DNA of 64,000 nucleotides, from positions 17,017 through 81,016 of the forward strand of contig CALIKS010000015.1 in the NCBI GenBank assembly GCA_938017985.1, written 5' to 3'. The translations under genes were made by a program, and so were the position numbers. Below the pieces are notes generated by a model, which worked only from the letters and a program-made list of their open reading frames with translations, ran no database searches and was not told where the DNA came from. This stretch comes from an uncultured archaeon. GTDB taxonomy: Archaea; Thermoproteota; Nitrososphaeria_A; Caldarchaeales; Calditenuaceae. Shown here piece by piece: positions 4,007-27,741 of the stretch; within the stretch, counting starts at the first letter, position 1; each line of letters opens with the position of its first letter.

Positions 4007-4066
4007 TTCTCACTATTATTAGGAGAAAGCTTAATACATAATTATCTCTTTTAGTAGTCTTGAAGC

Positions 4067-6158: not shown

Positions 6159-6764
6159 CTAGATTTTAGAGAATCTTTTATCAACATCGTCCCAGTTAAC
6201 TACGTTCCACCAATTATCCACGTAAGCCCCTCTGTCATTTTTGTATTGAAGATAGTATGCATGTTCCCAAACATCTATCGTAAGGAGAACTGGTAGGTCC
6301 GGCGGATGTAGCAAATTATGCTTCTCCACTTGATAAACGAATAGCAAATCTCCCTCGGGGTCATATGTCAGTACAGCCCACCCAGAAGCCTCAACATTCT
6401 TAGCCGCATCGCTAAAAACTTTTTTGAAAATTTCGAATGATCCAAAATCCTTTATAATCTGATCTGCGAGCTTTCCGCCGGGATTTCCTCCTCCTCTTCC
6501 AGGAGGGGCCATATTTGTCCAAAACACAGCGTGGAGTTTATGCCCACTAAGGTTAAAGGAAAGGTCTCTGAGGATGCTCCTAATATTTTCAGGATTCTCA
6601 CCCCTACGTGCTTTCTCCAAACGATCAATCGCTTGATTTGCTCCATTTACGTATGCCAAGTGATGTTTTGAATGATGAAGCGTCATTATTTGTTCTGATA
6701 TTATTGGCTCTAACGCATTGTATGAGTATGGTAGCGGAGGCAAATCATATTTTTTCATAAGCAA
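6159..6764 (-). CDS. sod: Fe/Mn superoxide dismutase
   Basis: 201 aa. LPPLPYSYNALEPIISEQIMTLHHSKHH and DVWEHAYYLQYKNDR are hallmark Fe/Mn-SOD motifs. Confidence 0.95.
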   Translation of the reverse strand: MLMKKYDLPPLPYSYNALEPIISEQIMTLHHSKHHLAYVNGANQAIDRLEKARRGENPENIRSILRDLSFNLSGHKLHAVFWTNMAPPGRGGGNPGGKLADQIIKDFGSFEIFKKVFSDAAKNVEASGWAVLTYDPEGDLLFVYQVEKHNLLHPPDLPVLLTIDVWEHAYYLQYKNDRGAYVDNWWNVVNWDDVDKRFSKI

Positions 6765-10357: not shown

Positions 10358-10744
10358 ATGGGCAAACAAGTAATATTCAGTGAAAAAGGTCCTAGGCCAC
10401 TCGGAGCTTATTCTCAAGCCATCCGCGCCGGCGACTTCATATTCGTGGCAGGCATGGGTGGGATAGACCCATCGACAGGACAGATGGTTAAGGGTGGAAT
10501 AAGAGAACAGACAAGACGAGCGATAGAGAACATAAAAGCAGTACTAGAATCTGTGGGAGCATCCCTCAATGATGTGGTCAAAGTGACTGTCTTCTTAGCG
10601 GATCCAGAAGATTTTAACGATATGAATGAAGTTTACCGAGAGTATTTCAAAGAGAACCCTCCGGCGAGAAGCACAGTTGCGGGCAGAATTCCCGGAAAGG
10701 ACTTCCTAATCGAGATAGACGCAATAGCCTACATTGGAAAATAG
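10358..10744 (+). CDS. ridA: RidA/YjgF-family reactive enamine/imine deaminase
   Basis: 128 aa. [28 protein letters not shown]...PARSTVAG...EIDAIA is typical of RidA. Confidence 0.9.
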
Positions 10745-10811
10745 AATAAGTTTAGAGACTATATTCATTTTTTTAAATAAGTTTATACGTATGTAGTAAT
10801 AATTCATACTT

Positions 10812-11894
10812 ATGAATAAACTAGAAATTGACACACCAGCCATAATAGTTGATTTTGACGTCATGATAAGAAACATAAGAGAGATGGCTAAGCTTGCTAA
10901 AGACCGGGGCGTCAAGCTGAGAGCGCACATCAAGACGCATAAGGTCCCAGAGATCGCGAAGATACAGCTTGAAGAAGGCTCAAGAGGCATATGCGTTCAA
11001 AAAGTAGGCGAAGCAGAAGTAATGGCTAATGAAGGAATAAACGACATATTCATAACAAACGAGGTCGTAGGAGATGTAAAGATAAAGAGACTCGCAAGAC
11101 TCGCTGAGAAAAATAAATTATTTGTAGCTGTTGATCATCCAGAGAATATAAAAAGCTTATCAAGAATAATGAAGGAGAATGGCGTAGAGCTAGGAATATA
11201 CATAGACGTTGACTGCGGAATGCACCGGACCGGCGTTCCATCGACGGAGGCTCCTGAGCTTGCAGAACTCATAACCCGCAGTGAAGGGCTTTACCTAAAA
11301 GGCGTCATGGGTTATGAAGGACATGCAGGGGCACCGCTAAAAAAAGAAGAGAGACAAAAACTCACAGAAGAAGCAATGAAGACGACACTCGAGGCAGTAA
11401 ATCTAATCAAGAAAGCAGGGATAGAAGTCGAGGAAGTAAGTGTAGGTTCGACCCCAACCGTCTGGTACAGCTCCTCTTACCAAGAGGTAACAGAGATACA
11501 GCCTGGAACATACGTATTCAATGATTACTACCTAGTCGATAGAGGAGTAGTCACTATTGAGAGATGCGCACTACACGTACTAGCAACAGTCATGAGTCGA
11601 GCAGCACCTGACAGAGGAGTAATAGACGCGGGCTCCAAAGCATTCCAACTCGACATGAATAAATATCCAGTAGCTCTCGGCATGGAGGGTGTAGAAGTCG
11701 TAAAGTTTTCAGAAGAGCATGGATGGTTAAAAATAACGGGCGAAGCACAAAACAAAATAAAGCTGGGAGACAAACTAGAATTCATACCATACCACGTATG
11801 CACCTGCGTCAACCAATTCGACACAATGTACATAATAAGAAACGACAAAGTAGAACGAGAATGGCAAATAAAAGCACGCGGCAAAATGGTCTAA
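10812..11894 (+). CDS. DSD1-family PLP enzyme (D-serine dehydratase / D-threonine aldolase-like, alanine racemase N-terminal fold)
   Basis: 360 aa. LRAHIKTHKVPEIAKIQL carries the PLP lysine in the HxKTHK context. It is followed by GICVQKVGEAEVMA and the C-terminal HGWL...PYHVCTCVNQFD. Confidence 0.75.
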   Translation: MNKLEIDTPAIIVDFDVMIRNIREMAKLAKDRGVKLRAHIKTHKVPEIAKIQLEEGSRGICVQKVGEAEVMANEGINDIFITNEVVGDVKIKRLARLAEKNKLFVAVDHPENIKSLSRIMKENGVELGIYIDVDCGMHRTGVPSTEAPELAELITRSEGLYLKGVMGYEGHAGAPLKKEERQKLTEEAMKTTLEAVNLIKKAGIEVEEVSVGSTPTVWYSSSYQEVTEIQPGTYVFNDYYLVDRGVVTIERCALHVLATVMSRAAPDRGVIDAGSKAFQLDMNKYPVALGMEGVEVVKFSEEHGWLKITGEAQNKIKLGDKLEFIPYHVCTCVNQFDTMYIIRNDKVEREWQIKARGKMV

Positions 11895-11930
11895 AAAATA
11901 AAAATTTTATCTTGGTTAAATTAATAATAT

Positions 11931-12818
11931 TTATACAACTACGGTTCCTGGATCTATGATTTTTATACTAGTTATGTAGCGTTGTAACACAGCTGCAACC
12001 AGTATTGCTGGAGTAATATTTGTCATCATTGCTGCAGCAGCCATAGAAGTCTCGACCGTAATGTTTTGGAAGAATGTTGTTAAGAATGGGGTGAATGGTT
12101 GCACCTCTGCTCCGCCTGATAGTAACATCCCATATAAGAACTCATTCCAAGAATACAGAAACGTTAGGATTGAAGTAGACGCAATGGCGGGCATCGCTAA
12201 AGGAATTGCAACTTTTGTAAATGTCGAAAACCTTCCACACCCATCAATTCTCGCTGACTTCTCAAGATCTGTTGGAAGAGTTGCAAAATAACCCATCAAT
12301 ATCCATGTCATCAACGGTATCGTTATTGTGAGATGTACCAAGATTAATCCAATGTACGTTCCTCTCAGCCCAGTCATTACGTAGAATGCATAGAAAGGTA
12401 CAAGTAAGCTGACTGGAGGAATCGTCCTCGAGCCGAACAATATCGCTATTAATGCATTCTTAGCCTTAACTCTATATCTCCCTAACACATATCCAGCTGG
12501 AACTACTACAGCAGTAGTAATAATGGTCACTGGCACTCCAATGATGGCTGAGTTAATCATTCCCCTTATTAATTCTCTATATTGTCCCGCTGGTCTAAGC
12601 GGGTTTCCCATCGGGTCAACCGCGCTGTATCCAAAGATCCTCATATAATTAGCAATTGTCGGGTCGTTGGGTATTAATGGGCTTGGAATCCTGATTACAT
12701 CCTTAGGCCAGCTAATCGACACTATGAATATATAATATATCGGCCCTAAACTATAGAATGCAACTAAAATTAGGGCGAGGTAAACCAAATATTTTGATGG
12801 CCTAGCCATACCTATCAC
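11931..12818 (-). CDS. carbohydrate-type (CUT1) ABC transporter permease
   Basis: 295 aa and polytopic, with the EAA loop EKSARIDGCGRFSTFTKVAIPLAMPA. Confidence 0.88.
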   Translation of the reverse strand: MIGMARPSKYLVYLALILVAFYSLGPIYYIFIVSISWPKDVIRIPSPLIPNDPTIANYMRIFGYSAVDPMGNPLRPAGQYRELIRGMINSAIIGVPVTIITTAVVVPAGYVLGRYRVKAKNALIAILFGSRTIPPVSLLVPFYAFYVMTGLRGTYIGLILVHLTITIPLMTWILMGYFATLPTDLEKSARIDGCGRFSTFTKVAIPLAMPAIASTSILTFLYSWNEFLYGMLLSGGAEVQPFTPFLTTFFQNITVETSMAAAAMMTNITPAILVAAVLQRYITSIKIIDPGTVVV

Positions 12819-12820
12819 CC

Positions 12821-13705
12821 TTAATATTGCATCACTCTCCGCCTCTTACTTATGACTATGAAATAACTCGTGATTGCTATGATCAGGCCAACCATTAATA
12901 GCCAAGATCCAGCAGCGCCATAACCAAGGTCTAGTCCTCTAAAGAATACCTTATAGATATAGAAAGTTATTGTCTGGGAGCTAGTTCCGGGCCCTCCCCC
13001 AGTCATCACGATTATCATGTCTGCTGTTCTTGCTGACTCTATAGTCGCAATTATTCCAGTCATTATGACGGCATACCTAATGAAGGGCAACGTAACCACT
13101 CTGAATCTCGTGAAGAAGCTTGCCCCATCTATCTTAGCTTGTTTATTAAGATCTTCAGGAATAGTTTGCAGTCCTGCTAGAATGAAGAAAATCCCTAGCG
13201 GTGCAAGATGCCATGCATACATAAAGGCCAGAAGCTCAACTACGTATGGAGAGCCTAGAAAATCGATGTATCTTTCTATTAATCCAAGCCTGTAAAGAAT
13301 TGCATTTACGAATCCATAGCTTCCATTAAACAAGTATCTTCCAGCAGTAGCCGTCGCAAATTCAGAGAGAGCCCAAGGCATTATGACAATAACTCTCATA
13401 ATTGATTGTCCAGTAAATGCTCTGTTTAGGAGTAGTGCTATAGATATGCTTAGAACTAAAACCATTATCGTAGAATCTATGACAAATCTTATAGTTACCA
13501 TGGTTGCCTCAACGTAAGATTTATCACTAAATAACTTAAGATATTGAAGCCCACCGACGGGTTCAAATTTGTTTAAAAATAGGTTGATATCGTGAAAGCT
13601 AAGATATAGAGAATAAGCCATCGGATAGATGCTTAGACCAAAATTCAAAATAAATAATGGAGTTAAAAGAACTATTGCTACCTTTGTGTCTGTCCACCTA
13701 ACCAA
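12821..13705 (-). CDS. carbohydrate-type (CUT1) ABC transporter permease
   Basis: 294 aa and polytopic, with the EAA loop NKQAKIDGASFFTRFRVVTLPFI. It lies 2 nt from the next permease. Confidence 0.88.
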   Translation of the reverse strand: MVRWTDTKVAIVLLTPLFILNFGLSIYPMAYSLYLSFHDINLFLNKFEPVGGLQYLKLFSDKSYVEATMVTIRFVIDSTIMVLVLSISIALLLNRAFTGQSIMRVIVIMPWALSEFATATAGRYLFNGSYGFVNAILYRLGLIERYIDFLGSPYVVELLAFMYAWHLAPLGIFFILAGLQTIPEDLNKQAKIDGASFFTRFRVVTLPFIRYAVIMTGIIATIESARTADMIIVMTGGGPGTSSQTITFYIYKVFFRGLDLGYGAAGSWLLMVGLIIAITSYFIVISKRRRVMQY

Positions 13706-13714
13706 CTATTGTTT

Positions 13715-15271
13715 TCACCCATGATATTTCTTCCAGAGCTCATCTGCGATCTTCCGCATCTCAGACACTGCCTCACGTGGCGAAATCTCCTGTGCAAGAC
13801 ACTTAGCCATGAGGTCGGGCGCTTTAACCATCCACTCACCGTATAAGGGCGATCTCCATATCCATGGAGCTGCCATAGTCTCTAACCATTTCTCAGACCT
13901 TTCAGCCGTTTCTTTTGTCTTTGGCCCGAGTCTAGCCTCCCAGGCTCTCTGTACGTCGGGGTCTCTTAAAACTGCTGGGTAGGCCGTATGTAAGAATTCT
14001 TCTTTTGCCCATTTATATGCTGAAGTGTGTTTCCCTTCGTTGTCTTTGTAACCAAACCAGAGTATGAGTCTTGCGGACCTGTCAAAATCATGATTATTCT
14101 TTGGCCAGCAATAAAGTCCAGTGTCTATAACGCCCAGCGCTTCTTCTACTACGGGTACCAACGTGGCTTTGCCAGCTATTCTAGACTTTGCCGGGTCCAT
14201 AGTGTTCCAGTATCCATACAAACCGTTGAGCCGCCCAAATGCGTAGCTTCCCGTCCAGAACGCCTCAGTGCCCACCGTGTCTGAGGAGGCTGAGATCACT
14301 GCCCTCTCAACGAGGTCTTCATCGACAAGCTTCCTCCAGTCTGATACGGTTTCATATACTGTATCACCTGGCGCCGCATCAAAAGTAGGAGCAAAGTCTT
14401 TACCGAACATTGATTTAGTCAGGTCTGGGTCCTTCGCCCTGCCTGCCACTTCTGCTAGTAAGGACCACACTGTACCCCAGAATGCATTGAACCAGTGTGG
14501 AACAAATGGTTTTATCATGCCCTCAGGAGCTCTCTGCTTTATCTTCCTCAGCATGTCATAGAGTTCTGCATGACTTCTTGGTAATTCACCAGCCATTCCT
14601 GCCTTTTCGAGTAATTCATCATTGGCAATGAGTGCTGGTGTAGCTGAGACGAAGTATGTTAGCCCGGCTAGTCTGCCTTGCTTATCGCTGTAGGCTCGTT
14701 TAACGCTCTCAAACATTTCTGCCTTTACCCATTCTATGTGTGGTAGTTCCTCAGCTGAGTTTGTAAAGCCTAGCTCAATCCATCTAAATGCCATGAATGC
14801 GTTGCCATAAACCATGTCGAATTTCTCCCCTGCCAGGAACTTTGTCTCTACCATTCCCTGATAGTCGGGACCCGTTATTTGTTCCTGCTCTAAGTTCTCA
14901 TTATTCTGTCTCATGAATATCTCTATATTTTCTGTAATTATGTCTGGTCGATATCCCCAGTGAACCCATTTAAGCGGCACCGCTGGTTTTACCGGCTCAG
15001 GCTTCCAAGGCGGCCATGCAATAGTGGGCGTTGTTGGTGGAGTTGTTACGGTTACAGGGCCTGTAACAGTCACAGTCCTCTCGACCGTCTTCTCTACAGT
15101 CACTGTCGCGCCCGGTGCAGTTACTGTCCTCTCAACGGTCCTTACTGGAGCAGCTGCTGAACCTACTAAATAACCTCCCGCACCGGCTACAACACCTGCC
15201 ACTACTACACCGATTGCCACTTTGCCAGCAGTGGATATTGCTTTCCTACGTGAAATTTTATTCTCAACCAT
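13715..15271 (-). CDS. ABC transporter extracellular solute-binding protein (family 1) with N-terminal anchor and Thr/Val-rich linker
   Basis: 518 aa. It has an N-terminal TM/signal segment (AIGVVVAGVVAGAGGYLVG) and the repetitive linker VERTVTAPGATVTVEKTVERTVTVTGPVTVTTPPTTPT. It is first in the operon with the two permeases. Confidence 0.8.
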   Translation of the reverse strand: MVENKISRRKAISTAGKVAIGVVVAGVVAGAGGYLVGSAAAPVRTVERTVTAPGATVTVEKTVERTVTVTGPVTVTTPPTTPTIAWPPWKPEPVKPAVPLKWVHWGYRPDIITENIEIFMRQNNENLEQEQITGPDYQGMVETKFLAGEKFDMVYGNAFMAFRWIELGFTNSAEELPHIEWVKAEMFESVKRAYSDKQGRLAGLTYFVSATPALIANDELLEKAGMAGELPRSHAELYDMLRKIKQRAPEGMIKPFVPHWFNAFWGTVWSLLAEVAGRAKDPDLTKSMFGKDFAPTFDAAPGDTVYETVSDWRKLVDEDLVERAVISASSDTVGTEAFWTGSYAFGRLNGLYGYWNTMDPAKSRIAGKATLVPVVEEALGVIDTGLYCWPKNNHDFDRSARLILWFGYKDNEGKHTSAYKWAKEEFLHTAYPAVLRDPDVQRAWEARLGPKTKETAERSEKWLETMAAPWIWRSPLYGEWMVKAPDLMAKCLAQEISPREAVSEMRKIADELWKKYHG

Positions 15272-15449
15272 ATCTCTTCACTCATTAATACAACTGCCAC
15301 TTATATATATTTTTTGTTAAGTTTATTTTTAACATTAATCTTATTGTTGGAGAATATTTAGATGATGTGTAGCATTTTTATCATTATTTCTAGAACAGCT
15401 AATGTAGTGTTGATGAAGCTTTATTAAATGGCTCTAATAAATTAAGCCG

Positions 15450-16502
15450 ATGAGTTTTTCCCCTGTAATAATTGATCTGCATGAAGATATTTCGTATTAC
15501 TACGTACATGGGGCTAGTGGTTTAGAGTTTGGTTTGGAGGAATTTGACAAAGACATGCAGGGTAGGCATGGCGATATTCCGAAGTTCAGGAAGTCTAGAG
15601 TCGCTATTGTCTTTTCTTCTGTTTTCTGCTTGCTTTCTACTATATCGCCCAGAATAAGTGAGCAGCTGACAAAGGGTTACGATGAGAAGGCAATTCGAGC
15701 GTGGGTTCCAAGGGCTACTCACTCGACATCTTTAGAACATTTAAAGGTATACTATAGATTGGTCGAACTATATCCACGAGACTTATCTATAATACTTACG
15801 AGAGAAGATGTGCAGAGAGCAATTGGTTTAGAAAAGATTGGATTCTTATTGGCTCTTGAGGGCGCCTACATGTTAGAGGACGTCGATGACCTAAAGCTCT
15901 ACTATAACATGGGCATTCGGAGCCTTCAGCTCTTATGGAACTTTGACTCTAGGTATGGTGCGTCATGCATGTCTACTAAAGACTATGGATTAACAGGCGA
16001 GGGTGAAGAGCTGGTAAAAGAAGCGAATAGGCTCGGAGTAATTATTGATTTAGCACATGCGAGTAAGAACACCCACATAGATGTCTTAAATCTCTCAAGG
16101 CTTCCAGTGATAAACAGCCACTCAAATGCAAGAAGACTCAAAGACGTGCCTAGGAACCTAGATGATGAGACGCTTGAAGAGTTTAAGAAGAAGAGAGGAG
16201 TGGTCGGATTCATATTTGGAATGATAGGAGGTAACGAAGACATTAATTCGTTAGCAGACCAGGTTATGTACGTCTATCAAAACTTTGGGCCTGACGTAAT
16301 GGCTATTGGGACTGACTACTTTGGGCTCATCGATGGAAAGGCGCCAAAAGGACTTGAAGACATAACAAAGATACCAAAACTATTCGAGATATTGCTGGAC
16401 AGGGGATTAAAAGAGTCAGACATAGAAAAATTAGCATACAAAAACGCATTAAGAGTCATTGAGGAAAATGCAGCGAATTGGAAAGTTCATACGCACATTT
16501 AA
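15450..16502 (+). CDS. membrane dipeptidase (peptidase family M19)
   Basis: 350 aa. Motifs VIIDLHEDISYY, IIDLAHASKNTHIDVL, NSHSNAR and GTDYFG match the renal-dipeptidase fold. Confidence 0.82.
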   Translation: MSFSPVIIDLHEDISYYYVHGASGLEFGLEEFDKDMQGRHGDIPKFRKSRVAIVFSSVFCLLSTISPRISEQLTKGYDEKAIRAWVPRATHSTSLEHLKVYYRLVELYPRDLSIILTREDVQRAIGLEKIGFLLALEGAYMLEDVDDLKLYYNMGIRSLQLLWNFDSRYGASCMSTKDYGLTGEGEELVKEANRLGVIIDLAHASKNTHIDVLNLSRLPVINSHSNARRLKDVPRNLDDETLEEFKKKRGVVGFIFGMIGGNEDINSLADQVMYVYQNFGPDVMAIGTDYFGLIDGKAPKGLEDITKIPKLFEILLDRGLKESDIEKLAYKNALRVIEENAANWKVHTHI

Positions 16503-16505
16503 GGG

Positions 16506-17657
16506 GTGATTAAAAGTTTGGGTTTAATCGAAGAATTAGGCTTGAAACCAATTATTAACGCGGCGGGCAACTTAACCGTCATAGGAGGTACAACGCTGGA
16601 AAAGGATGTCATAGAGGCAATGATGGAGGCGTCTAAGATTTTTCTTGATATGAACGAACTACACATCAAAGCTGGACAATACATTGCCAATCTGATAGGA
16701 GTTGAAGATGCTTACATTACCTCTGGCGCAGGAGCGGGAATCGCGCTCTCGGTAGCCGCCTGCATAGTCAGGGATAGGCCTGATAGGATTGGAACATTTC
16801 CGCATGTAGATGATTTAAGACATGAAGTCATAGTCCAGAAAAAACATAGAAACCTTTACGACTACATTATAGAGATTCCCGGCGCAAAAATAGTTGAGAT
16901 TGGTAATGATGTGGAGACCACGGAGGACGATTTGCAAAATGCGATAAACGATAAGACATGCGCAGTAATGTACTTTGTATTTGAGTCTCGGGAAGGAGTG
17001 TTGCCGCTAGATAGAGTCATAGAAATTGCACATAGTCACGGATTGCCAGTAATAGTTGACGCAGCCGCAGAGGTTCCTCCTCGAGAAAATCTTAAAAAAT
17101 TCTATAATATGGGAGCGGACTTGATACTTTTCAGTGCTGGCAAAGATATAGGTGCCCCTAATGATACGGGAATAATTCTTGGCAGGAGAGAACTGATTCA
17201 GCTCTGCAGAAGGCTCGGACCACATAGTTATGAAAAAGTAGACGATAAGACAAGGATTTACTTGGGGAGACCAATGAAAACAAGTAAGGAAGACATTTTA
17301 GCAGTCGTAGCTGCTGTCAAAAAATATCTAAGCATAAACGAAGAGGAAAGAATACAAAAATGGGAAAATAAGGCTGAGTACATATTCTCAGAATTGATTA
17401 AGAAAGGCATAAAAAACATAAATAAAATTTATCCAAAAGGTTTTGGACATCCAAGGCCTGCTTGCGTACCACGAATAGAGATTACTCCACCTCCATATTC
17501 GAATGTTGATGAATTATTAAGAGATTTACGAGAGGGCGAGCCGCCTATATATGCTTATGATTTTAATGGAAAGCTTTACGTAAGTCCTCAGTGTCTCAGG
17601 GATGGTGAAGAAAAAATTGTTGCTAAGAGATTAATAGAAATCTTAAAACAAAAATGA
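16506..17657 (+). CDS. SelA/DgaE-fold PLP-dependent enzyme (D-glucosaminate-6-phosphate ammonia-lyase-like), paralog 1
   Basis: 383 aa with a GTG start 4 nt after the dipeptidase stop. Motifs are PIINAAGNLTVIGGT, ITSGAGAGIALSVAAC and the PLP-lysine context FSAGKDIGAPNDTGII. Confidence 0.75.
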   Translation: MIKSLGLIEELGLKPIINAAGNLTVIGGTTLEKDVIEAMMEASKIFLDMNELHIKAGQYIANLIGVEDAYITSGAGAGIALSVAACIVRDRPDRIGTFPHVDDLRHEVIVQKKHRNLYDYIIEIPGAKIVEIGNDVETTEDDLQNAINDKTCAVMYFVFESREGVLPLDRVIEIAHSHGLPVIVDAAAEVPPRENLKKFYNMGADLILFSAGKDIGAPNDTGIILGRRELIQLCRRLGPHSYEKVDDKTRIYLGRPMKTSKEDILAVVAAVKKYLSINEEERIQKWENKAEYIFSELIKKGIKNINKIYPKGFGHPRPACVPRIEITPPPYSNVDELLRDLREGEPPIYAYDFNGKLYVSPQCLRDGEEKIVAKRLIEILKQK

Positions 17658-17663
17658 ATAAAT

Positions 17664-18692
17664 CTATTCACTTTCTTCTTTAAAATATGGAATTATTTTT
17701 GTTTTGAAAATTCTGAGCATTCTGTTGACGTTGTCGCTGAAATCACCCCATATTACTTGGTTTACTCCTAATTTTCTGAACTTGTCTATATTCTCGATGA
17801 TGTCTGCACCAGTCTCGCTTATGCACATGCTTCTCATTATCTGTTCATCATCAATCTTTTTGGCAGCTTCTAATATCTTTCGGGGATCAGGCTCATTAAA
17901 CATCTCCTTTAAGCTCGCACCGGCTATGTATGTCTTTATTCTTTTGACTACATTTTTAGGGTCGCCTATGCCTCCACCTATCGAGACTGCCTTTTCTACG
18001 ATTGCAGGGTTTCTTCCGGCTTCTCTAGCACCTTTTTCAAAGTTTGGCAAGATAGTAGAACTATATCTCTCAATGTTAGCTACAGTCATCAGTCTATCGG
18101 CATATTTCCCAGCCATGTATGCACTCTTCTCTCCCATCGCTGAGAAATAGATCGGGATATCGGTCTTCGGCTTCAAGTATAGAAAAGCCATAGGCATCTT
18201 GAAGTATTTCCCCTCAAATTTAAAAAAGTCTTGTTCATGAAACAACTTCTTAATCAGATCTATCCCTTCTATTAGTCGTTCTATACGTTCCTCCCATTTG
18301 GGCCAAAATCCAAGGAATGGCTGCTCATTCATTGCCTCTCCGGATCCTACACCAAGCAAAAACCTTCCCGGAAACATCACGTCTATCGTAGCGCTAGCCT
18401 GAGCAATCAATGCAGGATGATACCTACCTCCAATCGGGACCGTAACTGCTACACCTCCCTTAATTGATTTTGTCCTCGATAATACAATAGGCAGTAACGA
18501 CCAAACATAAAAATTATGTCTAAAAGAGTGATGCCAAGGATAAAAATGGTCGCCAAGCCATAATGCATCAAAACCAGCTTTCTCCATCCTCACGAGATAC
18601 CTAAGAGAATATTCCTCATCGAAAAGCAATGTAAAAGAAGCATCTATTCCGATCTCAAATTTTTTTACAGCCATTTCATATTCAAAATACAA
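17664..18692 (-). CDS. LLM-class (luciferase-like) flavin/F420-dependent oxidoreductase
   Basis: 342 aa. AGFDALWLGDHFYPWHHS, GVGSGEAMNE and the TIM-barrel length resemble the F420-dependent G6PD-like subfamily. Confidence 0.78.
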   Translation of the reverse strand: MYFEYEMAVKKFEIGIDASFTLLFDEEYSLRYLVRMEKAGFDALWLGDHFYPWHHSFRHNFYVWSLLPIVLSRTKSIKGGVAVTVPIGGRYHPALIAQASATIDVMFPGRFLLGVGSGEAMNEQPFLGFWPKWEERIERLIEGIDLIKKLFHEQDFFKFEGKYFKMPMAFLYLKPKTDIPIYFSAMGEKSAYMAGKYADRLMTVANIERYSSTILPNFEKGAREAGRNPAIVEKAVSIGGGIGDPKNVVKRIKTYIAGASLKEMFNEPDPRKILEAAKKIDDEQIMRSMCISETGADIIENIDKFRKLGVNQVIWGDFSDNVNRMLRIFKTKIIPYFKEESE

Positions 18693-18732
18693 TTTAAGTA
18701 TTTAAATCTAAACTATATCCTACTCTAACCTT

Positions 18733-19578
18733 TTATAATTTGCCAAATAATTTAACTGGATTTTCATATATTATATTTTTTATTATGTTTACTGGAATTT
18801 TTGGTAGACTTGTTCTTCTAACGATTTTATTTAGTTTTAGTAGGTCGCTTATTGTTTTTTCAGGAGTACTAAAGGGAAAGTCAGTACCGAATAATAATTT
18901 ATCGGTTATGCGATACTCCATGCAGGTCATGAGCTTATGGTATAACCTAAACGGACGGGACGTTAAAGTTGAAATATCAGCCCAAACATTTGGGTGTTTC
19001 CTCACTAATACAATTGCCTCGTCTTCCCATGGATGTCCCAAATGAGCAAGAATAATTTTTAGGTCACTAAAATTAGTAGCGACGTCATCGAGGAGAGATG
19101 GATAGGCATACTTAAGAGGCGCTCTTCTAATAAAAGTAGTAGCTTGATGAATCAAGACTGGTATCTCGAGCTCTTGGGCCAATTCAAATAATTTATATGC
19201 CCTGTCAGAATTTGGGTCAAAGTTTTGATATATTGGTGATATTTTTAGCCCTTTCATATGAAGATCCTGTATACATTTTTTAAGTTCAGCAGTTGCGTCT
19301 GGCTGATTTGGATCAATACAGCAAAACCCGATTAGTTTATCGGGAAACTTATCGACATATTCAGCTACGTATTCATTAGGGACATTGATTTTGAGAAAAA
19401 GGCTCTTGAATGCTAGTACAATTGCTTTGTCAACTTTAGACATAGCTTTTTCGTGTACTTCAGGGGTTGCTTTTAGCGACTCTATACTTCCTCCCCAGAC
19501 CCTTGAGAAATCTGAAATCATTTCTTGTCCTAAGTGCTTATCGACATCCCAAACATGTGTATGACAGTCAATGAGCAT
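18733..19578 (-). CDS. amidohydrolase-2 family metal-dependent hydrolase
   Basis: 281 aa. The pattern is MLIDCHTHVWD (HxH), ILAHLGHPW and GTDFPF. Confidence 0.8.
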   Translation of the reverse strand: MLIDCHTHVWDVDKHLGQEMISDFSRVWGGSIESLKATPEVHEKAMSKVDKAIVLAFKSLFLKINVPNEYVAEYVDKFPDKLIGFCCIDPNQPDATAELKKCIQDLHMKGLKISPIYQNFDPNSDRAYKLFELAQELEIPVLIHQATTFIRRAPLKYAYPSLLDDVATNFSDLKIILAHLGHPWEDEAIVLVRKHPNVWADISTLTSRPFRLYHKLMTCMEYRITDKLLFGTDFPFSTPEKTISDLLKLNKIVRRTSLPKIPVNIIKNIIYENPVKLFGKL

Positions 19579-19684
19579 AAAATAATCATATTAGTTCACT
19601 ATTTATCAATTACCAAGTTACAAGACAATAAGCTTTGAAATTTTTAACCAACTTAATCAAAAAACTTATTTACCATAACAACTA

Positions 19685-20815
19685 ATGTACAACGAGATTG
19701 ATATGAGTATTTTACAATCTCTCGGAGTTAATAGAGTAATAAATGCTGCGGGTGCAGAAACACCATTAGGGGGTAGTGTATTGCCCCTTGAAGTAGTAGA
19801 GGCAATGCGTGAAGCCTCCTTTATTTTTTTGGATATGCATGAATTATTGCATAAAGCTGGGAAAAGAATTGCCGAATTATTAGGAGTTAAGGCTGCCTTC
19901 ATTACTTCAGGAGCTGCTGCTGGGCTAACGATCTCTGCAGCCGCATGTATCGCGGGGAAAGATGTTGCGAAGATTAAAAAGCTTCCATTGACGGACGACA
20001 TGAAAAATCAAATCATAGTACAGAGATCTCATAGGACCGTCTTTGATCATGCATATATGATGGCTGGTGCGAGATTAGTTGAGATCGGCAAACCATCAAT
20101 CTATGATAAGAAAGAGATAGAAGGCGCGATTAATGATAAGACTGCAGCAATTGCTTTTACGGTCTCTGGTAAAGGAATAGTGAAGTTAGAAGATTATTTT
20201 GATGTAGCCAGACATTATGGGGTGCCCTTGATTGTCGATGCGGCACCGGTCATTCCACCAATATCTTATCCTAGAGATCTCTGTAAAAATGCTGATTTAG
20301 TAGTCGTAAGTGGTGGCAAGGCCCTAAGGGGACCTAATGATTCTGGAATCATATGTGGCGAGCCCGAGTTAATTGAAGCATGTGCCCTTAATGCGCATCC
20401 CAACTTCGCAGTTGGAAGACCAATGAAAATAAGCAAGGAACAGATAGTAGGATTGGTCGCAGCAGTTGAGTTGTATGTAAAGAAAGACGAAAAAGCAGAA
20501 ATAGAGAAGTGGAACAACGCACTTAAAAAAATTTCAGAAATCCTTGACTCAGTACCAGGATTTGATAAGAGGATAGTTTTTCCAGACGAATTACAGAGAC
20601 CAGTGCCGAGGCTTCATATTAAGATAGGACGAGGAAAAGTATGGAAGGTCATTGAAATGTTGCAAAAAGTCGAGCCGAAGATTTTTACAGCCGATTACTT
20701 AACCATGGAATATTATCCAGATTGGTTAGTCCTTGACCCGACGACTCTACTCGAGGGCGACGACGAGATAGTGGCGAATAGATTATTAGAAATTTTAAGA
20801 ACATTGGAGACTTAA
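19685..20815 (+). CDS. SelA/DgaE-fold PLP-dependent enzyme, paralog 2
   Basis: 376 aa and colinear with 16506-17657. Shared motifs are VINAAGAETPLGGS, ITSGAAAGLTISAAAC and VSGGKALRGPNDSGII. Confidence 0.75.
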   Translation: MYNEIDMSILQSLGVNRVINAAGAETPLGGSVLPLEVVEAMREASFIFLDMHELLHKAGKRIAELLGVKAAFITSGAAAGLTISAAACIAGKDVAKIKKLPLTDDMKNQIIVQRSHRTVFDHAYMMAGARLVEIGKPSIYDKKEIEGAINDKTAAIAFTVSGKGIVKLEDYFDVARHYGVPLIVDAAPVIPPISYPRDLCKNADLVVVSGGKALRGPNDSGIICGEPELIEACALNAHPNFAVGRPMKISKEQIVGLVAAVELYVKKDEKAEIEKWNNALKKISEILDSVPGFDKRIVFPDELQRPVPRLHIKIGRGKVWKVIEMLQKVEPKIFTADYLTMEYYPDWLVLDPTTLLEGDDEIVANRLLEILRTLET

Positions 20816-20818
20816 TCA

Positions 20819-21934
20819 ATGAACGGGATTAAACTGAAGATTAGAGATATTGAAGTCATTCCTGTAAATGTTCCAATAGATTTCTATTATGCTTCATCGC
20901 TTGGTATTAGGGGACAGTCAGAATTTATAATAATTAGAATTACATCTAGTGACGGTCTCGTCGGCTATGGCGAGGCTAGCTTAGAACATAATTGGCTTGA
21001 AGGCGAGACACAAGCATCTGTGAAGGTGGCCGTCGAAAAATACATATCGAAATTTTTAGTCAACGAAGAGATTAAGAGTTTGGCTTTGACGTTGTATCAG
21101 ATAAATAAAGCAATAGCCGGCAATTTATACGCAAAGTCATCGATTGATATTGCTCTTCATGATCTTGTTTGTAAATACTTGGGAATTCCTTTATTTGATT
21201 ATTTAGGAGGCAAGATAACGGACGAAATTCCCGTAAAATTTAATATTCCAATAACAAAGACTGAGGAGGTTGTTCGTCTCTCCAAATTTGCCAAAAATAA
21301 AGGATTTAAGACTATAAAGTTAAAAGTAGGGCTGGATGAAAAATTAGACATACAAAATGTTGAAAGTATTAGGTCAGCTGTTGGAACAGATGTATTGCTA
21401 GGAGTAGATGCAAATGGTGCTTGGCGACCTAAACAAGCTGTTAAAATAATTAAAAGAATGGAGGATTTTGACCTTTTATTCGTTGAGCAACCAGTCCCAA
21501 GGTGGGATATAGATGGTTTATCCTACGTCTCAAGGAATGTAAACGTACCTATTATGGCTGACGAAAGTATTGCTACGCCAAGTGATGCAATTAATTTAGT
21601 GAAAAAAAATGCAGCAGACATGTTTAGCGTCTATATCGGCAAAGCAGGCGGAATAAACGAGGCTCGAAAAATTATAAACATCGCGGAGAGCGCAGGCATT
21701 CAATGTACATTGGGAAGCAACATTGAGTTAGGTATCGGAAATTCGGCAAAGCTGCATGTTGCAGCCTCGTCATTTAACATAACTGTAGCGCCTGATATAG
21801 CTCCATGGTTTTATACAGAAGACGTTATTAGCCCTCGCCTTGAATGTGAAGATGGGAAAATAAAAGTTCCGAAAAATGTTGGACTAGGGATTAGAGTTGA
21901 TGAAGATAAAATCGAGAAATACCGAGTTAACTAA
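20819..21934 (+). CDS. enolase-superfamily enzyme, MLE subgroup (dipeptide epimerase / N-acylamino acid racemase-like)
   Basis: 371 aa. It has the KxK motif in FKTIKLKVG, metal ligands in GVDANGAW, FVEQP and IMADES, and a second catalytic Lys in VYIGKAGG. It starts 3 nt after the upstream stop. Confidence 0.82.
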   Translation: MNGIKLKIRDIEVIPVNVPIDFYYASSLGIRGQSEFIIIRITSSDGLVGYGEASLEHNWLEGETQASVKVAVEKYISKFLVNEEIKSLALTLYQINKAIAGNLYAKSSIDIALHDLVCKYLGIPLFDYLGGKITDEIPVKFNIPITKTEEVVRLSKFAKNKGFKTIKLKVGLDEKLDIQNVESIRSAVGTDVLLGVDANGAWRPKQAVKIIKRMEDFDLLFVEQPVPRWDIDGLSYVSRNVNVPIMADESIATPSDAINLVKKNAADMFSVYIGKAGGINEARKIINIAESAGIQCTLGSNIELGIGNSAKLHVAASSFNITVAPDIAPWFYTEDVISPRLECEDGKIKVPKNVGLGIRVDEDKIEKYRVN

Positions 21935-22044
21935 TTGTTAAAGAATCTTGCGGTAAATAAATTATAGAACGAAGATATATTAACTATCTTCAAGCATTAA
22001 TTACCCTTATATATAAGATGCGGATTATTATTGGCGAGGGATAA

Positions 22045-23136
22045 ATGGTAGTAGTCAAATTGGAAAATCTCACAAAAAAATTTAGAGATTTAGTTGCGGT
22101 AGATAATGTAAGTTTAGAGATTAAGGATAAGGAATTCTTCGTCTTTCTTGGGCCTTCGGGTTCTGGTAAAAGTACGACTTTGAATATGATTGCAGGGTTA
22201 GAAGAGCCGACATCTGGCTACATATATTTTGACGGGCAAGTAGTGAATGATGTTCCGCCTGAGAAACGAGATGTAGCTATGGTTTTCCAGACATTTGCCT
22301 TGTATCCCCATCTGAATGCTTTTGACAATATTGCCTTTCCGCTTAAGGTTAGAAAATATCCAAAAAACGAAATCAGGAATAAGGTGATTCAGGTCGCCGA
22401 GATGCTCAAGATTAAACATCTTTTAAGCAAAAAACCATACGAGATGAGTGGCGGGGAGCGTCAGAGAGTGGCGCTAGCAAGGGCAATCGTGAGAGAGCCT
22501 AGGCTATTCCTACTCGATGAGCCATTATCCAACATCGACGCAAAGCTAAGAGTATACATGAGAGCAGAACTGATCCGGCTTCAGAAAGACCTAGGAATTA
22601 CGACGATTTATGTCACGCATGATCAAGTAGAGGCTATGACTATGGGTGACCGAGTAGCAATAATGAACTGGGGCAAGGTCATGCAAATTGGTTCACCGAT
22701 TGAGGTTTTCAGAAAGCCTGCTAATCTGTTTGTCGCCGGATTTATAGGGACACCTCCAATGAACTTTTTCGAATGTAGTTTAAAGACGAATGGCAAGAAC
22801 ATACTGGAATGCGGTCATTTCAATCTATCAATTGATAAAAGCATTGCAGACGTGATTAAACAAAATAGTAGTGGTGATGAGTTAGTTTTAGGCATAAGGC
22901 CAAATGAATTAAGGGTTACGAATGAAAAAATCTCGGAGGACAGCTTCCAGTCAGAGATATTTGCAGTCGAAAACCTAGGAACAGAGAGTATTGTAAACTT
23001 TAAACTAGGTGATAACATATACAAAGCAGTTGTTCCAGGAGTAATATACTATAGCTTCGGACAGAAGGTTTGGATTACTGTTAATAAGGAGGCAATACAT
23101 ATATTTGATAAAAAATCAGAAAAAGCAATAATCTAA
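22045..23136 (+). CDS. sugar-type ABC transporter ATP-binding protein (MalK/UgpC-like)
   Basis: 363 aa with Walker A GPSGSGKST, signature MSGGERQRVALARA, Walker B LFLLDEPLS, and a C-terminal regulatory/TOBE-like domain. Confidence 0.92.
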   Translation: MVVVKLENLTKKFRDLVAVDNVSLEIKDKEFFVFLGPSGSGKSTTLNMIAGLEEPTSGYIYFDGQVVNDVPPEKRDVAMVFQTFALYPHLNAFDNIAFPLKVRKYPKNEIRNKVIQVAEMLKIKHLLSKKPYEMSGGERQRVALARAIVREPRLFLLDEPLSNIDAKLRVYMRAELIRLQKDLGITTIYVTHDQVEAMTMGDRVAIMNWGKVMQIGSPIEVFRKPANLFVAGFIGTPPMNFFECSLKTNGKNILECGHFNLSIDKSIADVIKQNSSGDELVLGIRPNELRVTNEKISEDSFQSEIFAVENLGTESIVNFKLGDNIYKAVVPGVIYYSFGQKVWITVNKEAIHIFDKKSEKAII

Positions 23137-23148
23137 AGTCAAAGAATA

Positions 23149-24369
23149 TTATTGGTTCGTTTTTAACTCGTTTATTATAGTTTTAATCCATGAGAAAATT
23201 GTCTTCGGTGTCCATCCATAATTGTATAGGGCTATGCCGTCGGCTCCTCCATTGATCGCAGACTTTATACTCATTGATAGATTCTCTTTTGTATAGTTTA
23301 TAGGGTAATTTGTCCTAATTGAGGGGATGATCATGCATTTTTTATTAATCATATTCTTTAAAGACTTAACATAATTTTCTATTCGTCTGGGGTTCTCGAA
23401 ATAACATATATAATCAATAGCGTCTATGATTTTGCTAATTTTTTCGAAGTTGAAGCCCTCATTCAACCACATAGTGGCTCCAGATATGATACTTATCCTT
23501 ACTTTTTTATTAAAGGACCTTACATTTTCACGTATCTCTTGGAGCATATCTAGGCTTGTATATGATTTGAACTCGGCTAGATGTCTCATAGTCTCGTTAA
23601 ACATTAAGTATTCATATAATGAAGAGGCTACATCGCTTTCAGGAATGCCTGGGTAGAGGTCGGGAGAAACATTCATTATTTCTGATATTATTTCACGTGC
23701 TTTATTTTTAGCGGCTGAGAGGTTTATTCCGTACTCTTTAGCTTTTGCTTCACAGTGCTGACAATAACAGGTTGAGTATAGATACGAGAGTATGGGATGT
23801 ACATATACCCCGAATGTTTCATGATGATCAAAGTGTTGTAGTCCCCATGGAAAGGCTACTGATTCAAGTTGAATAAAATCGAGGTCATAACTACTTGCTA
23901 GGTTGCAGACAAGCCCTGTTATGTATCTTCTTGCATCAGGATTATTCGGACACATGAAATTTTCATCAATATTTCCGAATGGATCTTGAACAGCAACGTC
24001 AGGGTTTTGCCTTACTAGCTCATAGTTATGTAGACATACTGTCCATGAATTTACCCTTAAATCGTAACTCTTTGCATACTCAGTCGCGATTTTTAACACG
24101 TCATAGTCTATGTATTTTTGTGACCTCCTAGGCTTTAGTTTTGTATTCGTGAAGAACTCTGATAAAGGTTCAAAGTATATTACTCCCTCTTCAGCAAAGT
24201 ATACGAGTTTTTTTGGATTATGAGGGAGAATGTATCTTCCGCAATGGTAACTGGTGGCTATATTAATGTGTGATAATCCCATCTCGCTCATTGTGTTCAT
24301 AACTTTCTCAGCTCCCTCATCGATTAAATCCCATGGATGTAGATACATTGAGAAATAATCATTGTTCAT
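23149..24369 (-). CDS. hypothetical protein, possibly a TIM-barrel glycoside-hydrolase-like enzyme
   Basis: 406-aa ORF. YLHPWDLIDEGAEKV...LSHINIATSYH and alternating beta/alpha-like segments suggest a TIM barrel. This is weak recognition only. Confidence 0.45.
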   Translation of the reverse strand: MNNDYFSMYLHPWDLIDEGAEKVMNTMSEMGLSHINIATSYHCGRYILPHNPKKLVYFAEEGVIYFEPLSEFFTNTKLKPRRSQKYIDYDVLKIATEYAKSYDLRVNSWTVCLHNYELVRQNPDVAVQDPFGNIDENFMCPNNPDARRYITGLVCNLASSYDLDFIQLESVAFPWGLQHFDHHETFGVYVHPILSYLYSTCYCQHCEAKAKEYGINLSAAKNKAREIISEIMNVSPDLYPGIPESDVASSLYEYLMFNETMRHLAEFKSYTSLDMLQEIRENVRSFNKKVRISIISGATMWLNEGFNFEKISKIIDAIDYICYFENPRRIENYVKSLKNMINKKCMIIPSIRTNYPINYTKENLSMSIKSAINGGADGIALYNYGWTPKTIFSWIKTIINELKTNQ

Positions 24370-24510
24370 AATTTTTCTAGAAGATAAGCAATACTTAAGC
24401 GTGCTACCTCTAAATTAAGATATTATTATGTATGTTTGTATATAGCTCTCTATATTTTTTTGATTTGATGGGGTTGGAAAAATTTATTAATTCGGTAAGT
24501 AAGCGATTCA

Positions 24511-26541: not shown

Positions 26542-26568
26542 AAATTTTGCCTGATTTCGATTAATTTT

Positions 26569-27705: not shown

Positions 27706-27741
27706 AATTATTCAGACTAGAAAATCAAGAATATATATGGA

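Follow-up and report, generated by a model that had tools for sequence, protein, structure and literature searches.

In the Ong pathway of Pseudoalteromonas prydzensis, oxidised chitin products are converted from GlcNAc1A to GlcN1A and further to 2-keto-3-deoxygluconate (KDG) (PMC9537276). The D-aminoacylase OngB deacetylates GlcNAc1A, and the fold-type III pyridoxal phosphate (PLP) enzyme OngC, which acts on D-Ser and D-Thr too, deaminates the product to KDG, while the RidA protein OngD is essential in vivo (PMC9537276). For chitinotrophic natronoarchaea, a genome-based prediction of 2025 runs from N-acetylglucosamine (GlcNAc) via glucosamine and glucosaminate to 2-keto-3-deoxy-6-phosphogluconate (KDPG) (PMC12343721). 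The chitinase clusters of Natrarchaeobius encode a DasA-like importer of the CUT1 type, a deacetylase together with glycosidases, and a glucose dehydrogenase; a DgaE homologue, an enolase-superfamily enzyme, and a protein of the RutC/RidA family are encoded there as well (PMC12343721). Here, I describe a gene cluster at positions 10358-24369 of a window of 64,000 nucleotides, the whole stretch of DNA that was analysed (assembly GCA_938017985.1, contig CALIKS010000015.1, positions 17,017 to 81,016), from an uncultured archaeon of the Calditenuaceae. The window carries archaeal markers (TopoVI-A, a thermosome subunit, and a PAC2 protein), and its nearest named relatives are metagenome-assembled genomes (MAGs) labelled 'Nitrososphaerota archaeon'. 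With a probability of roughly 55%, this locus serves to take up an N-acylated amino sugar and to break it down oxidatively by a variant of the amino-sugar acid route of the Ong/Dga type; the route itself has been demonstrated in bacteria (Ong), and in archaea it is so far a prediction only.

The predicted pathway and its relation to known systems

Profile searches (Pfam and NCBIfam) together with an open reading frame (ORF) listing recovered all 13 genes that an initial annotation of the locus had listed, with the folds it had stated (Table 1). Their family matches are significant, that of the binding protein being only weak, and two start codons were moved. The start of DgaE-like 2 is probably at 19703 (370 aa), because a 100%-identical database protein (P0001) has 370 aa, and that of LLM is probably at 18674 (336 aa), because an exact match (P0307) has 336 aa.

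In the route proposed here, the CUT1 importer (binding protein, two permeases, and MalK) would take up an N-acyl amino sugar, probably a GlcNAc-, GalNAc- or chitobiose-like mono- or disaccharide. The 406-aa protein Unk406 would cleave the disaccharide or act on the oxidised sugar. The luciferase-like oxidoreductase LLM would oxidise C1 to the lactone, probably with F420, and the co-transcribed Amidohydro_2 enzyme would open the lactone to an N-acyl-hexosaminic acid, which is also an N-acyl-beta-hydroxy-D-alpha-amino acid. M19 would then strip the acyl group, and DgaE-like 1, DgaE-like 2, or the DSD1-like enzyme would eliminate the 3-OH, perhaps with one enzyme per stereoisomer. RidA would hydrolyse the resulting enamine/imine to a 2-keto-3-deoxy-hexonate and NH3, for an Entner-Doudoroff-type branch. 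The MLE-type enolase would epimerise C2 of the N-acyl amino-sugar acid or dehydrate the N-acyl acid, and the acetate might pass to the neighbouring acetyl-CoA synthetase. I infer the substrates and all of these reaction steps from the folds, motifs, operon layout, and co-occurrence that were observed, and my confidence in any single step is lower than in the pathway class. Among the substrates that the initial annotation had named as examples, an amino-sugar acid fits best. The predicted hallmarks of the locus are an LLM/Amidohydro_2 oxidation front end, M19 as the deacylase, three candidate deaminases, and a glycoside hydrolase (GH)-like partner, Unk406.

The likeness to the Ong pathway is at the family level. 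The window has a RidA gene beside a fold-type III PLP deaminase gene (23-28% identity, not orthology), a metal amidohydrolase to free the amine, and a glycosidase-type enzyme. As in the Ong pathway, an aldonic amino sugar would be treated as an N-acyl-D-amino acid, the predicted product being a 2-keto-3-deoxy-hexonate. On the other hand, M19 stands in place of OngB, and the GHL10-like Unk406 stands in place of the GH20 enzyme OngA. An OngB-type Amidohydro_3 D-aminoacylase (about 490 aa) was not found in the window cluster, where M19 and Amidohydro_2 are the only deacylase candidates, and neither a GH20 OngA, KdgK, an SSS transporter, nor TonB receptors were found among the 16 genes scanned at 10358-28788. 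The window adds a dehydrogenase/lactonase pair, so that the route would not depend on aldonic acids made by lytic polysaccharide monooxygenases (LPMOs). Two PLP enzymes of the DgaE fold and an MLE enolase are further additions, and the host is an archaeon.

The Dga system of Salmonella is resembled in another respect. Two proteins of the window have the SelA/DgaE fold and keep the PLP lysine and the Arg aligned with the 'GRK' stretch of the ammonia-lyase DGL, and a beta-elimination on a D-configured amino-sugar acid is predicted for them. As the initial annotation had pointed out, the partners of the Salmonella system are missing: the mannose-type PTS and the KDPG aldolase DgaF are absent from the cluster and its annotated flanks. 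The window differs further in having no sigma-54 activator, and its substrate is probably non-phosphorylated.

The enzyme set of the window is functionally parallel to that of the haloarchaeal clusters, with the same oxidative logic and partly different families. The haloarchaeal clusters have a CE14 deacetylase, GH3/GH20 glycosidases, an MDR-type glucose dehydrogenase, and adjacent GH18 chitinases. In contrast, the window has M19, the GHL10-like Unk406, and an F420-type LLM with Amidohydro_2, as well as an extra fold-type III deaminase, and no chitinase was seen. The initial annotation had regarded the pathway as unlike any described one. This view was abandoned, since RidA, a fold-type III deaminase, and a deacylase make up the Ong core (PMC9537276) and the haloarchaeal prediction runs parallel (PMC12343721). 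In the legend of Figure 5 of the latter paper, the RutC-family gene is labelled a transcriptional repressor (PMC12343721). By analogy with OngD, that haloarchaeal protein seems more naturally read as an enamine/imine deaminase of the RidA type that works for the DgaE homologue.

A trio of dehydrogenase, Amidohydro_2 lactonase, and enolase-superfamily dehydratase also works in oxidative, non-phosphorylative routes such as those of L-fucose and L-galactose. The Amidohydro_2-LLM operon and the adjacent enolase-superfamily gene of the window recall this trio, as does a row of genes at a distant locus (L160; L numbers denote the loci compared), which has a DHDPS-family gene in the same locus. However, the window dehydrogenase is an LLM and not an SDR, GFO, or AKR enzyme, its enolase belongs to the MLE subgroup, and the PLP eliminases and RidA point to an amino-substituted substrate. 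A literature search for an N-acetylhexosamine dehydrogenase or an N-acetylglucosaminate pathway found nothing relevant.

RidA and the three PLP enzymes

The window RidA is 50% identical to the RidA of a Burkholderia operon that encodes a deaminase, a D-aminoacylase, and RidA (see below), and by analogy it may be the counterpart of OngD. The earlier suggestion that RidA serves the PLP eliminases is supported.

The best PDB matches of the DSD1-like enzyme are 6qkb and 4v15 (D-3-hydroxyaspartate aldolase, 1.5e-62; D-threonine aldolase, 2.9e-56). Its metal site is His-x-Cys (YHVCTC), as in D-threo-3-hydroxyaspartate dehydratase (3wqc), whereas the aldolases have His-x-Asp. OngC-like deaminases share the His-x-Cys site with the window enzyme and 3wqc. 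Because of this site, the DSD1-like enzyme is more likely a dehydratase/ammonia-lyase than an aldolase. It is predicted to be a dehydratase/ammonia-lyase of beta-hydroxy-D-amino acids (amino-sugar acids) and the counterpart of OngC.

DgaE-like 1 and DgaE-like 2 are 39% identical to each other. PDB entries 8t7j and 7lc0 were matched by DgaE-like 1; no literature was found on 8T7J, its best structural relative. In an alignment to Salmonella DGL (7lc0), the PLP Lys and the Arg at the 'GRK' stretch are kept. The pair His162-His163 has been described as strictly conserved in DGL, and a consensus of 31 homologues of the DgaE-likes has no conserved HH. Since the pair is absent, the alignment indicates that the DgaE-likes are not DGL orthologues, and they probably do not take a 6-phosphate substrate. 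Thus, the initial annotation of two paralogues with the SelA/DgaE fold stands as to the fold and not as to DGL orthology. DgaE-like 1, which is retained even in a reduced relative of the locus (L094), is predicted to be an ammonia-lyase for a non-phosphorylated amino-sugar acid.

LLM, Amidohydro_2, M19, and the enolase

LLM resembles F420-dependent alcohol and glucose-6-phosphate dehydrogenases, with the motifs DHFxPW and GSGE present, and its best PDB match is the F420 alcohol dehydrogenase Adf (1rhc, 1e-62), which is a secondary-alcohol dehydrogenase. Amidohydro_2 has the HxH...H...D metal motifs and lies upstream of LLM in every relative that has the pair. Together in one operon, they look like a sugar dehydrogenase/lactonase pair; LLM is predicted to be an amino-sugar C1 dehydrogenase with F420 as a putative cofactor, and Amidohydro_2 is predicted to be a sugar lactonase. 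A second LLM of the F420-G6PDH family is encoded outside the cluster (49210-50232, + strand; TIGR03557 249 bits versus the 210-bit cut-off), which is consistent with F420 use by the organism.

M19 matches PF01244 with 259.7 bits (gathering cut-off 26). The stretches DLHED, LEG, DLAHAS, and NSHSNA are present, which I take to be the renal-dipeptidase metal ligands, mapped without an alignment. As far as the motifs tell, the metal sites of M19 and Amidohydro_2 are consistent with being intact. M19 is conserved beside LLM in three other loci (L174, L175, and L176) and absent from L094. It is predicted to be a deacylase of the N-acyl-D-amino-acid type and a functional counterpart of OngB.

Of the PDB structures, YkfB, an L-Ala-D/L-Glu epimerase (1jpm, 1.6e-60), matches the enolase best. 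In the alignment with YkfB, the stretches KLKVG (KxK), DANGAW, EQP, MADES, and KAGG are present, and the bases and the D/E/D metal ligands are conserved. In YkfB, D321 and D323, a DxD after the eighth strand, bind the N-terminal ammonium group of the substrate. The window enzyme does not have this DxD; 'RFDFDAP' of YkfB aligns to 'VAPDIAP', whose single Asp is out of register. Thus, the signature noted in the initial annotation is there and the role of a dipeptide epimerase drawn from it is not borne out. Rather than a canonical dipeptide epimerase, the enzyme is predicted to be a 2-epimerase or a beta-dehydratase of an N-acyl amino(-sugar) acid. The MLE subgroup (KxK plus K) is not known to include an acid-sugar dehydratase.

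These two enzymes raise the question of a salvage pathway for D-amino acids and peptides. In such a pathway, M19 (preferring L-Xaa-D-Xaa) would trim a peptide or muropeptide fragment after its import, the MLE enzyme would epimerise dipeptides, and the DSD1-like enzyme, the DgaE-likes, and RidA would dehydrate D-Ser and D-Thr, while LLM, Amidohydro_2, and Unk406 would perform side reactions. M19 does belong to a dipeptidase family, the enolase has YkfB as its best match, and D-Ser and D-Thr are deaminated by OngC-type and DSD-type enzymes. Besides, some DgaE-like homologues adjoin Dpp/Opp-type peptide ABC genes, MlrC, or D-aminoacylases, and the nearest fold of Unk406, Cwp19, acts on peptidoglycan. 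However, the transporter is of the CUT1 sugar type and not of the Dpp/Opp type, the enolase lacks the DxD for the dipeptide ammonium group, and the D-Ala and D-Glu of peptidoglycan have no beta-leaving group for the eliminases. Peptide salvage also leaves unexplained the Amidohydro_2-LLM operon, the LLM/D-aminoacylase/Unk406 and Unk406/SDR/AKR pairings, and the sugar-type genes near distant homologues (GH4, BadF/BadG-family kinases, GFO, a DHDPS-family aldolase, and a KDGal kinase with its aldolase). Peptide salvage is therefore judged improbable, and the peptide-processing or muropeptide reading of the initial annotation is weakened.

Returning to the amino-sugar acid route, the enolase may open a PLP-independent branch beside the PLP branch. 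It may dehydrate the N-acyl-hexosaminate to an N-acyl-dehydroamino acid, which M19 would hydrolyse and whose enamine RidA would take over. The historical name of M19 is 'dehydropeptidase I'. The cluster would then hold three undescribed activities, namely the F420-linked oxidation of amino-sugar C1 by LLM, a new glycosidase or lactonase (Unk406), and this deamination branch. That all three are present is improbable. A related and equally improbable idea is that the substrate is an oxidised muramic-acid derivative; D-lactate would then be the beta-leaving group in the reaction of the PLP enzymes, which would take the place of the MurQ etherase.

Unk406 and the importer

The initial annotation had called the 406-aa protein a probable TIM barrel, and its AF2 model is indeed a (beta/alpha)8 barrel (mean pLDDT 93.4). 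The match to PF02638 is weak (24.4 bits; gathering cut-off 27.9). With Foldseek, the nearest folds are Cwp19 (GHL10, 7e-13) and the C-terminal domain of PgaB (6.5e-12), at a TM-score of about 0.6 and about 10% identity. The PgaB domain has been solved with GlcN and GlcNAc, and GH42 galactosidases are further neighbours. E168 at the end of beta-4 is conserved, as are D13, H41, N114, H178, H181-H182-E183, D315, R351, and Y381-N382-Y383. The end of beta-7, the usual position of the clan GH-A nucleophile, is occupied by a conserved Arg and not by Glu. Because of this Arg, glycosidase chemistry is not assured, and the classic retaining mechanism of clan GH-A was rejected. From the model, Unk406 is predicted to be a glycosidase for an amino-sugar disaccharide, or alternatively a lactonase. 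The family may represent a new glycosidase or lactonase for (oxidised) amino sugars that is habitually paired with a dehydrogenase.

An exhaustive profile search of 1.84 billion representatives gave 801 at E<=1e-30, 1757 at a middle threshold, and 3,677 at E<=1e-3. The family is mid-sized, with about 800 clusters at 50% identity, and the impression from a word-indexed search that it is very rare (37 matches) was rejected by the exhaustive search. No characterised member was found. The immediate neighbour of Unk406 is an oxidoreductase in 25 of 60 loci, and amidohydrolases account for 28 of 221 ORFs near Unk406 versus 3 of 171 distant ORFs, the loci being taken without correction for relatedness.

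The importer is of the CUT1 type, with two MalF/MalG-type permeases and a clear MalK-type ATPase with an OB/TOBE domain; the ATPase gene adjoins Unk406 in all close relatives. The binding protein (13715-15271) has no match in Pfam and a weak one to MsmE (4rk9, 2.6e-4). The protein carries a hydrophobic anchor of archaeal type at its N-terminus and a linker rich in Thr and Val, and its homologue in L094 (42% identical) matches SBP_bac_1.

A non-sugar substrate was also considered. It would be an amino compound, N-acylated or glycated, for which opines, Amadori products, and aminocyclitol conjugates are examples. LLM would oxidise a secondary alcohol, as 1rhc, the closest solved LLM, does, and the beta-hydroxy amino acid, once freed, would go to the PLP enzymes. 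In the L103 clade, the neighbouring genes (GFO/MocA, xylose-isomerase-like TIM barrels, DAP_DH-like dehydrogenases, and an aminotransferase) resemble inosamine/rhizopine-type loci. However, those neighbours are absent from the window, and no FAD amine oxidase, fructosamine kinase, or deglycase was found. Since the fold neighbours of Unk406 are hexosamine- and galactoside-active enzymes and the strongest analogies are the Ong/Dga amino-sugar acid routes, a substrate of this kind is very unlikely.

Conservation of the gene cluster

Is the gene set conserved in other archaea and in bacteria? Close relatives (about 70% identity of Unk406) keep the cluster with variation, and one of them (L095) is complete. 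The Amidohydro_2/DgaE-like 2/MLE block is conserved in L001-L003, L093, and L095. In the 86%-identical relative L001, IS240/DDE transposase genes interrupt the cluster (5615-6502 and 12578-13039), and a pair of Amidohydro_1 (381 aa) and RidA genes takes the place of the RidA-DSD1 end of the window. The syntenic locus of L094 (12472-20881) is reduced. Its CUT1 binding protein and permeases differ (42-48% identity), and the ABC genes are separated from DSD1 by a gene for a thermosome subunit; this 554-aa ORF was at first taken for a D-aminoacylase, which was rejected. The gene content of L094 suggests two separable modules.

Beyond the close relatives, L174 shares the ABC system of the window and combines it with M19-Amidohydro_2-LLM and DgaE-like 2. 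An M19-LLM-DSD1 cassette was found in two other archaeal MAGs (L175:5753-9107 and L176:5689-9103). The identities to the window are 50-52% for M19, 53% for LLM, and 69-70% for DSD1, which retains His-x-Cys. The cassette could be a minimal version of the pathway. In both MAGs, it adjoins CofD-family, nitroreductase-fold, and NTP_transf_3 genes together with Rieske/cytochrome b genes; the first three may belong to F420 biosynthesis.

In a clade of Unk406 homologues at about 40% identity, LLM (50-53% identical) and an OngB-like D-aminoacylase always lie beside Unk406. Near this clade, a creatininase-fold hydrolase, xylose-isomerase-like TIM barrels, and GFO oxidoreductases were found. LLM-D-aminoacylase pairs with divergent Unk406 occur in at least 10 loci. 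At about 25% identity, operons of RidA, Unk406, SDR, an OngC-like protein (425 aa), and an OngB-like protein (490 aa) were found (L153, L162, L165, and L172). A deep-ocean clade (22-30% identity) has Unk406-AKR pairs only (L119, L147, L149, L152, L154, L164, and L167-L169). One long operon in L150 encodes a CUT1 ABC system, Unk406, GH4, two BadF/BadG-family ATPases, RidA, a DgaE-like protein, a D-aminoacylase, SDR, and GFO; the Pfam family of BadF/BadG ATPases includes GlcNAc kinases. In L160, Unk406 is accompanied by three Amidohydro_2 genes, an MLE-type enolase (31% identical), GFO, M20, and a DHDPS-family protein, and the Amidohydro_2 gene that is 42% identical is followed in a row by the enolase and the GFO dehydrogenase.

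The deaminase, D-aminoacylase, and RidA of L165 are 43%, 53%, and 58% identical to those of the Burkholderia operon. The latter (L173) lies on the Burkholderia pseudomallei plasmid NZ_CP009155.1 (177167-192423), where the genes for the OngC-like deaminase, D-aminoacylase, and RidA are followed in the operon by 2-dehydro-3-deoxygalactonokinase and KDPGal aldolase genes. The surroundings (GH88, a PL8 lyase, KduI/KduD, and a carbohydrate ABC system) are those of a glycosaminoglycan locus. This suggests an N-acetylgalactosaminic-acid branch in glycosaminoglycan use, of which no description was found in the literature consulted. Because the L165 triad matches an operon in such a locus, the triad of PLP enzyme, D-aminoacylase, and RidA appears, by analogy, to be a general module for N-acetyl-hexosaminic acids.

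A profile scan with DgaE-like as the anchor gave a different picture. Among 80 loci at 37-46% identity, almost all from Chloroflexota or Bathyarchaeia, none has LLM, Amidohydro_2, or Unk406. In the bacterial loci, an amidohydrolase is the commonest neighbour (21/74), and CUT1 binding proteins occur in 12/74. A conserved DgaE-family neighbourhood was therefore rejected as the organising principle, there being no fixed partners at about 40% identity, and Unk406 and LLM were used as anchors instead. Thus, the conservation check proposed in the initial annotation succeeded for mosaic subsets around Unk406 and LLM and failed for the DgaE-like anchor.

In summary, co-conservation is a mosaic with three recurring contexts, namely M19-LLM-DSD1, D-aminoacylase-LLM-Unk406, and RidA-Unk406-SDR-OngC-like-OngB-like. 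In three separate contexts, LLM goes with a deacylase, sometimes also with a deaminase. Because the same families turn up again as partial sets in unrelated lineages, the gene grouping exceeds chance, in agreement with the functional link that had been assumed at the outset.

Alternatively, there may be no single pathway. Two or three independent modules with unrelated substrates, for example RidA-DSD1, ABC/M19/DgaE-like 1/LLM/Unk406, and Amidohydro_2/DgaE-like 2/MLE, may have been joined by local rearrangement. The division into six transcription units in both orientations with no common promoter motif, the loss of four genes in L094 with another ABC system and a thermosome gene inside the cluster, the IS elements between genes in L001, and the variable partners of DgaE-like homologues at 40% identity would all agree with this. 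On the other hand, family subsets recur without synteny to the window (L150, L153/L165, L160, L174-L176, and the L103 clade). Their links overlap: LLM is found with M19, DSD1, Amidohydro_2, D-aminoacylase, and Unk406, and Unk406 is linked to DgaE-like, RidA, and Amidohydro_2 plus MLE. This is the pattern of a mosaic but functionally connected pathway, and separate modules are possible and rather unlikely.

Several observations nevertheless weigh against the amino-sugar acid route. Both DgaE-likes score under the cut-off of TIGR01437 (Table 1) and far under the DGL equivalog cut-off (181 and 192 bits versus 600), and they lack His162-His163 of DGL ('SHH' versus 'FES' in paralogue 1). DgaE-like genes at about 40% identity have heterogeneous contexts, some of them peptide-related (Dpp-type ABC, MlrC). 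The DSD1-like enzyme is only 23-28% identical to OngC-like deaminases, and its closest solved relatives are aldolases. To my knowledge, the M19 family is known for dipeptidases and not for sugar-acid deacetylases. LLM scores 178.5 bits against TIGR03557, below the cut-off of 210.4, and both its cofactor and its substrate are putative. Unk406 has Arg for Glu at beta-7. L094 does without M19, Amidohydro_2, DgaE-like 2, and MLE. Among the annotatable ORFs of the window, no chitinase, KDG kinase, or KDG aldolase was identified. Finally, no common operator motif was found across five promoter regions of the six transcription units.

Operon layout, regulation, and flanking genes

Gene spacing and orientation divide 10358-24369 into six transcription units, which lie in both orientations: RidA-DSD1 (+; 67 nt between the genes), SBP-permease-permease (-), M19-DgaE-like 1 (+; 3-nt gap), Amidohydro_2-LLM (-; 40-nt gap), DgaE-like 2-MLE-MalK (+; a 3-nt gap, then 110 nt), and Unk406 (-), which is divergent from the acetyl-CoA synthetase gene. 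The pairing of enzymes within operons (RidA-DSD1, M19-DgaE-like 1, Amidohydro_2-LLM, and DgaE-like 2-MLE-MalK) is what the pathway predicts.

A generic AT-rich 8-mer is common to 3 of the 5 promoter regions, and nothing else is shared. By eye, the 8-mer CTAATGTA was seen in the divergent promoter regions 15272-15449 and 19579-19702, within ACAGCTAATGTAG and ACAACTAATGTAC. At 19579-19702, it overlaps the rejected upstream ATG of DgaE-like 2. This match was rejected as an operator or as evidence of co-regulation, being too weak.

The initial annotation had spoken of an island. The GC content is 0.38-0.44 inside the cluster and around it, so a composition-based island was rejected. Because a reduced version occupies the syntenic site in L094, the locus is variable and not demonstrably mobile. 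Elsewhere in the window, the GC content is 0.51-0.55 over 52000-60000 versus about 0.40 in the first half; the high-GC part covers genes for a degradative-type HMG-CoA reductase and an aldehyde:ferredoxin-oxidoreductase-like protein.

The acetyl-CoA synthetase gene is syntenic in close relatives only, and its link to the pathway is weak. It is a possible sink for the freed acetate, its membership of the pathway being uncertain. An RraA-like protein is encoded 6.5 kb downstream of the cluster (30932-31642, +), and in L174 an RraA-like gene (3733-4431) lies within the cluster, between the permeases and M19. The RraA-like family includes 4-hydroxy-2-oxoacid aldolases, and the protein might be an aldolase for the keto-deoxy product. 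A search by tblastn with the unannotated window ORFs 59760-60551 and 62126-62965, as KDG aldolase/kinase candidates, against plasmids gave no match. A DUF4432 gene (27742-28788) also lies downstream of the cluster. DUF4432 proteins have a mutarotase-like fold. Homologues (31-33% identical to that of the window) recur near DgaE-like genes in Dehalococcoidia (L021-L023, L026, and L028), at loci that also carry AKR and a low-identity enolase. Thus, the window gene may be functionally linked, beyond mere synteny.

Table 1. Genes of the predicted amino-sugar acid locus and the adjoining acetyl-CoA synthetase gene (window coordinates)
Gene product	Coordinates	Strand	Evidence and context
RidA-family enamine/imine deaminase	10358..10744	+	PF01042 4e-38; TIGR00004 135.6 bits, above the 106-bit cut-off; heads the RidA-DSD1 operon
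DSD1-like enzyme, fold-type III PLP enzyme of the DSD1/D-Thr-aldolase clade	10812..11894	+	Ala_racemase_N and D-ser_dehydrat
CUT1 ABC permease, MalG/GlcU-like	11931..12818	-	BPD_transp_1; top NCBIfam match GlcU
CUT1 ABC permease, UgpA/MalF-like	12821..13705	-	BPD_transp_1; top NCBIfam match UgpA
Substrate-binding protein (SBP) of the ABC importer, membrane-anchored	13715..15271	-	First gene of the SBP-permease-permease operon
M19 metallo-amidohydrolase	15450..16502	+	PF01244 4.6e-77; 3-nt gap to DgaE-like 1
DgaE-like 1, DgaE/SelA-fold PLP enzyme	16506..17657	+	TIGR01437 221 bits, under the cut-off of 385
LLM, luciferase-like (F420-G6PDH/Adf-type) oxidoreductase	17664..18674	-	PF00296 9e-48; second in the Amidohydro_2-LLM operon
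Amidohydro_2 metal hydrolase	18733..19578	-	PF04909 2e-40
DgaE-like 2, DgaE/SelA-fold PLP enzyme	19703..20815	+	TIGR01437 215 bits, under the cut-off of 385; 3-nt gap to the enolase
MLE-subgroup enolase-superfamily enzyme	20819..21934	+	MR_MLE_N/C; MR_MLE_C 7e-58
MalK/UgpC-type ABC ATPase of the importer	22045..23136	+	ABC_tran, OB_MalK, TOBE_2; UgpC model 416 bits
Unk406, GHL10-like (beta/alpha)8 protein, cytoplasmic, 406 aa	23149..24369	-	Weak PF02638 match
Acetyl-CoA synthetase	24511..26541	+	TIGR02188 876 bits, above the cut-off; divergent from Unk406

Implications

The initial annotation had missed the dehydrogenase/lactonase-like character of the LLM and Amidohydro_2 operon, the GH-like fold of Unk406, and the fact that the DgaE-likes do not appear to be DGL orthologues. 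The present analysis does not overturn current understanding; its value lies in concrete and cheap targets for enzymology, and the M19-LLM-DSD1 cassette offers a minimal three-enzyme system for in vitro reconstitution. The use of amino sugars, which occur in chitin, cell walls, glycoproteins, and exopolysaccharides, is poorly known in archaea outside Thermococcales and haloarchaea. If the prediction is true, the locus would list in full, and in testable form, the enzymes of an oxidative route that works without an extracellular LPMO and leads directly to metabolism of the Entner-Doudoroff type, which many archaea have. Moreover, it would place an M19 'dipeptidase' outside peptide metabolism and an F420-type LLM in sugar oxidation, and it would give first functions to the Unk406 TIM-barrel family and to the archaeal DgaE-fold PLP enzymes.

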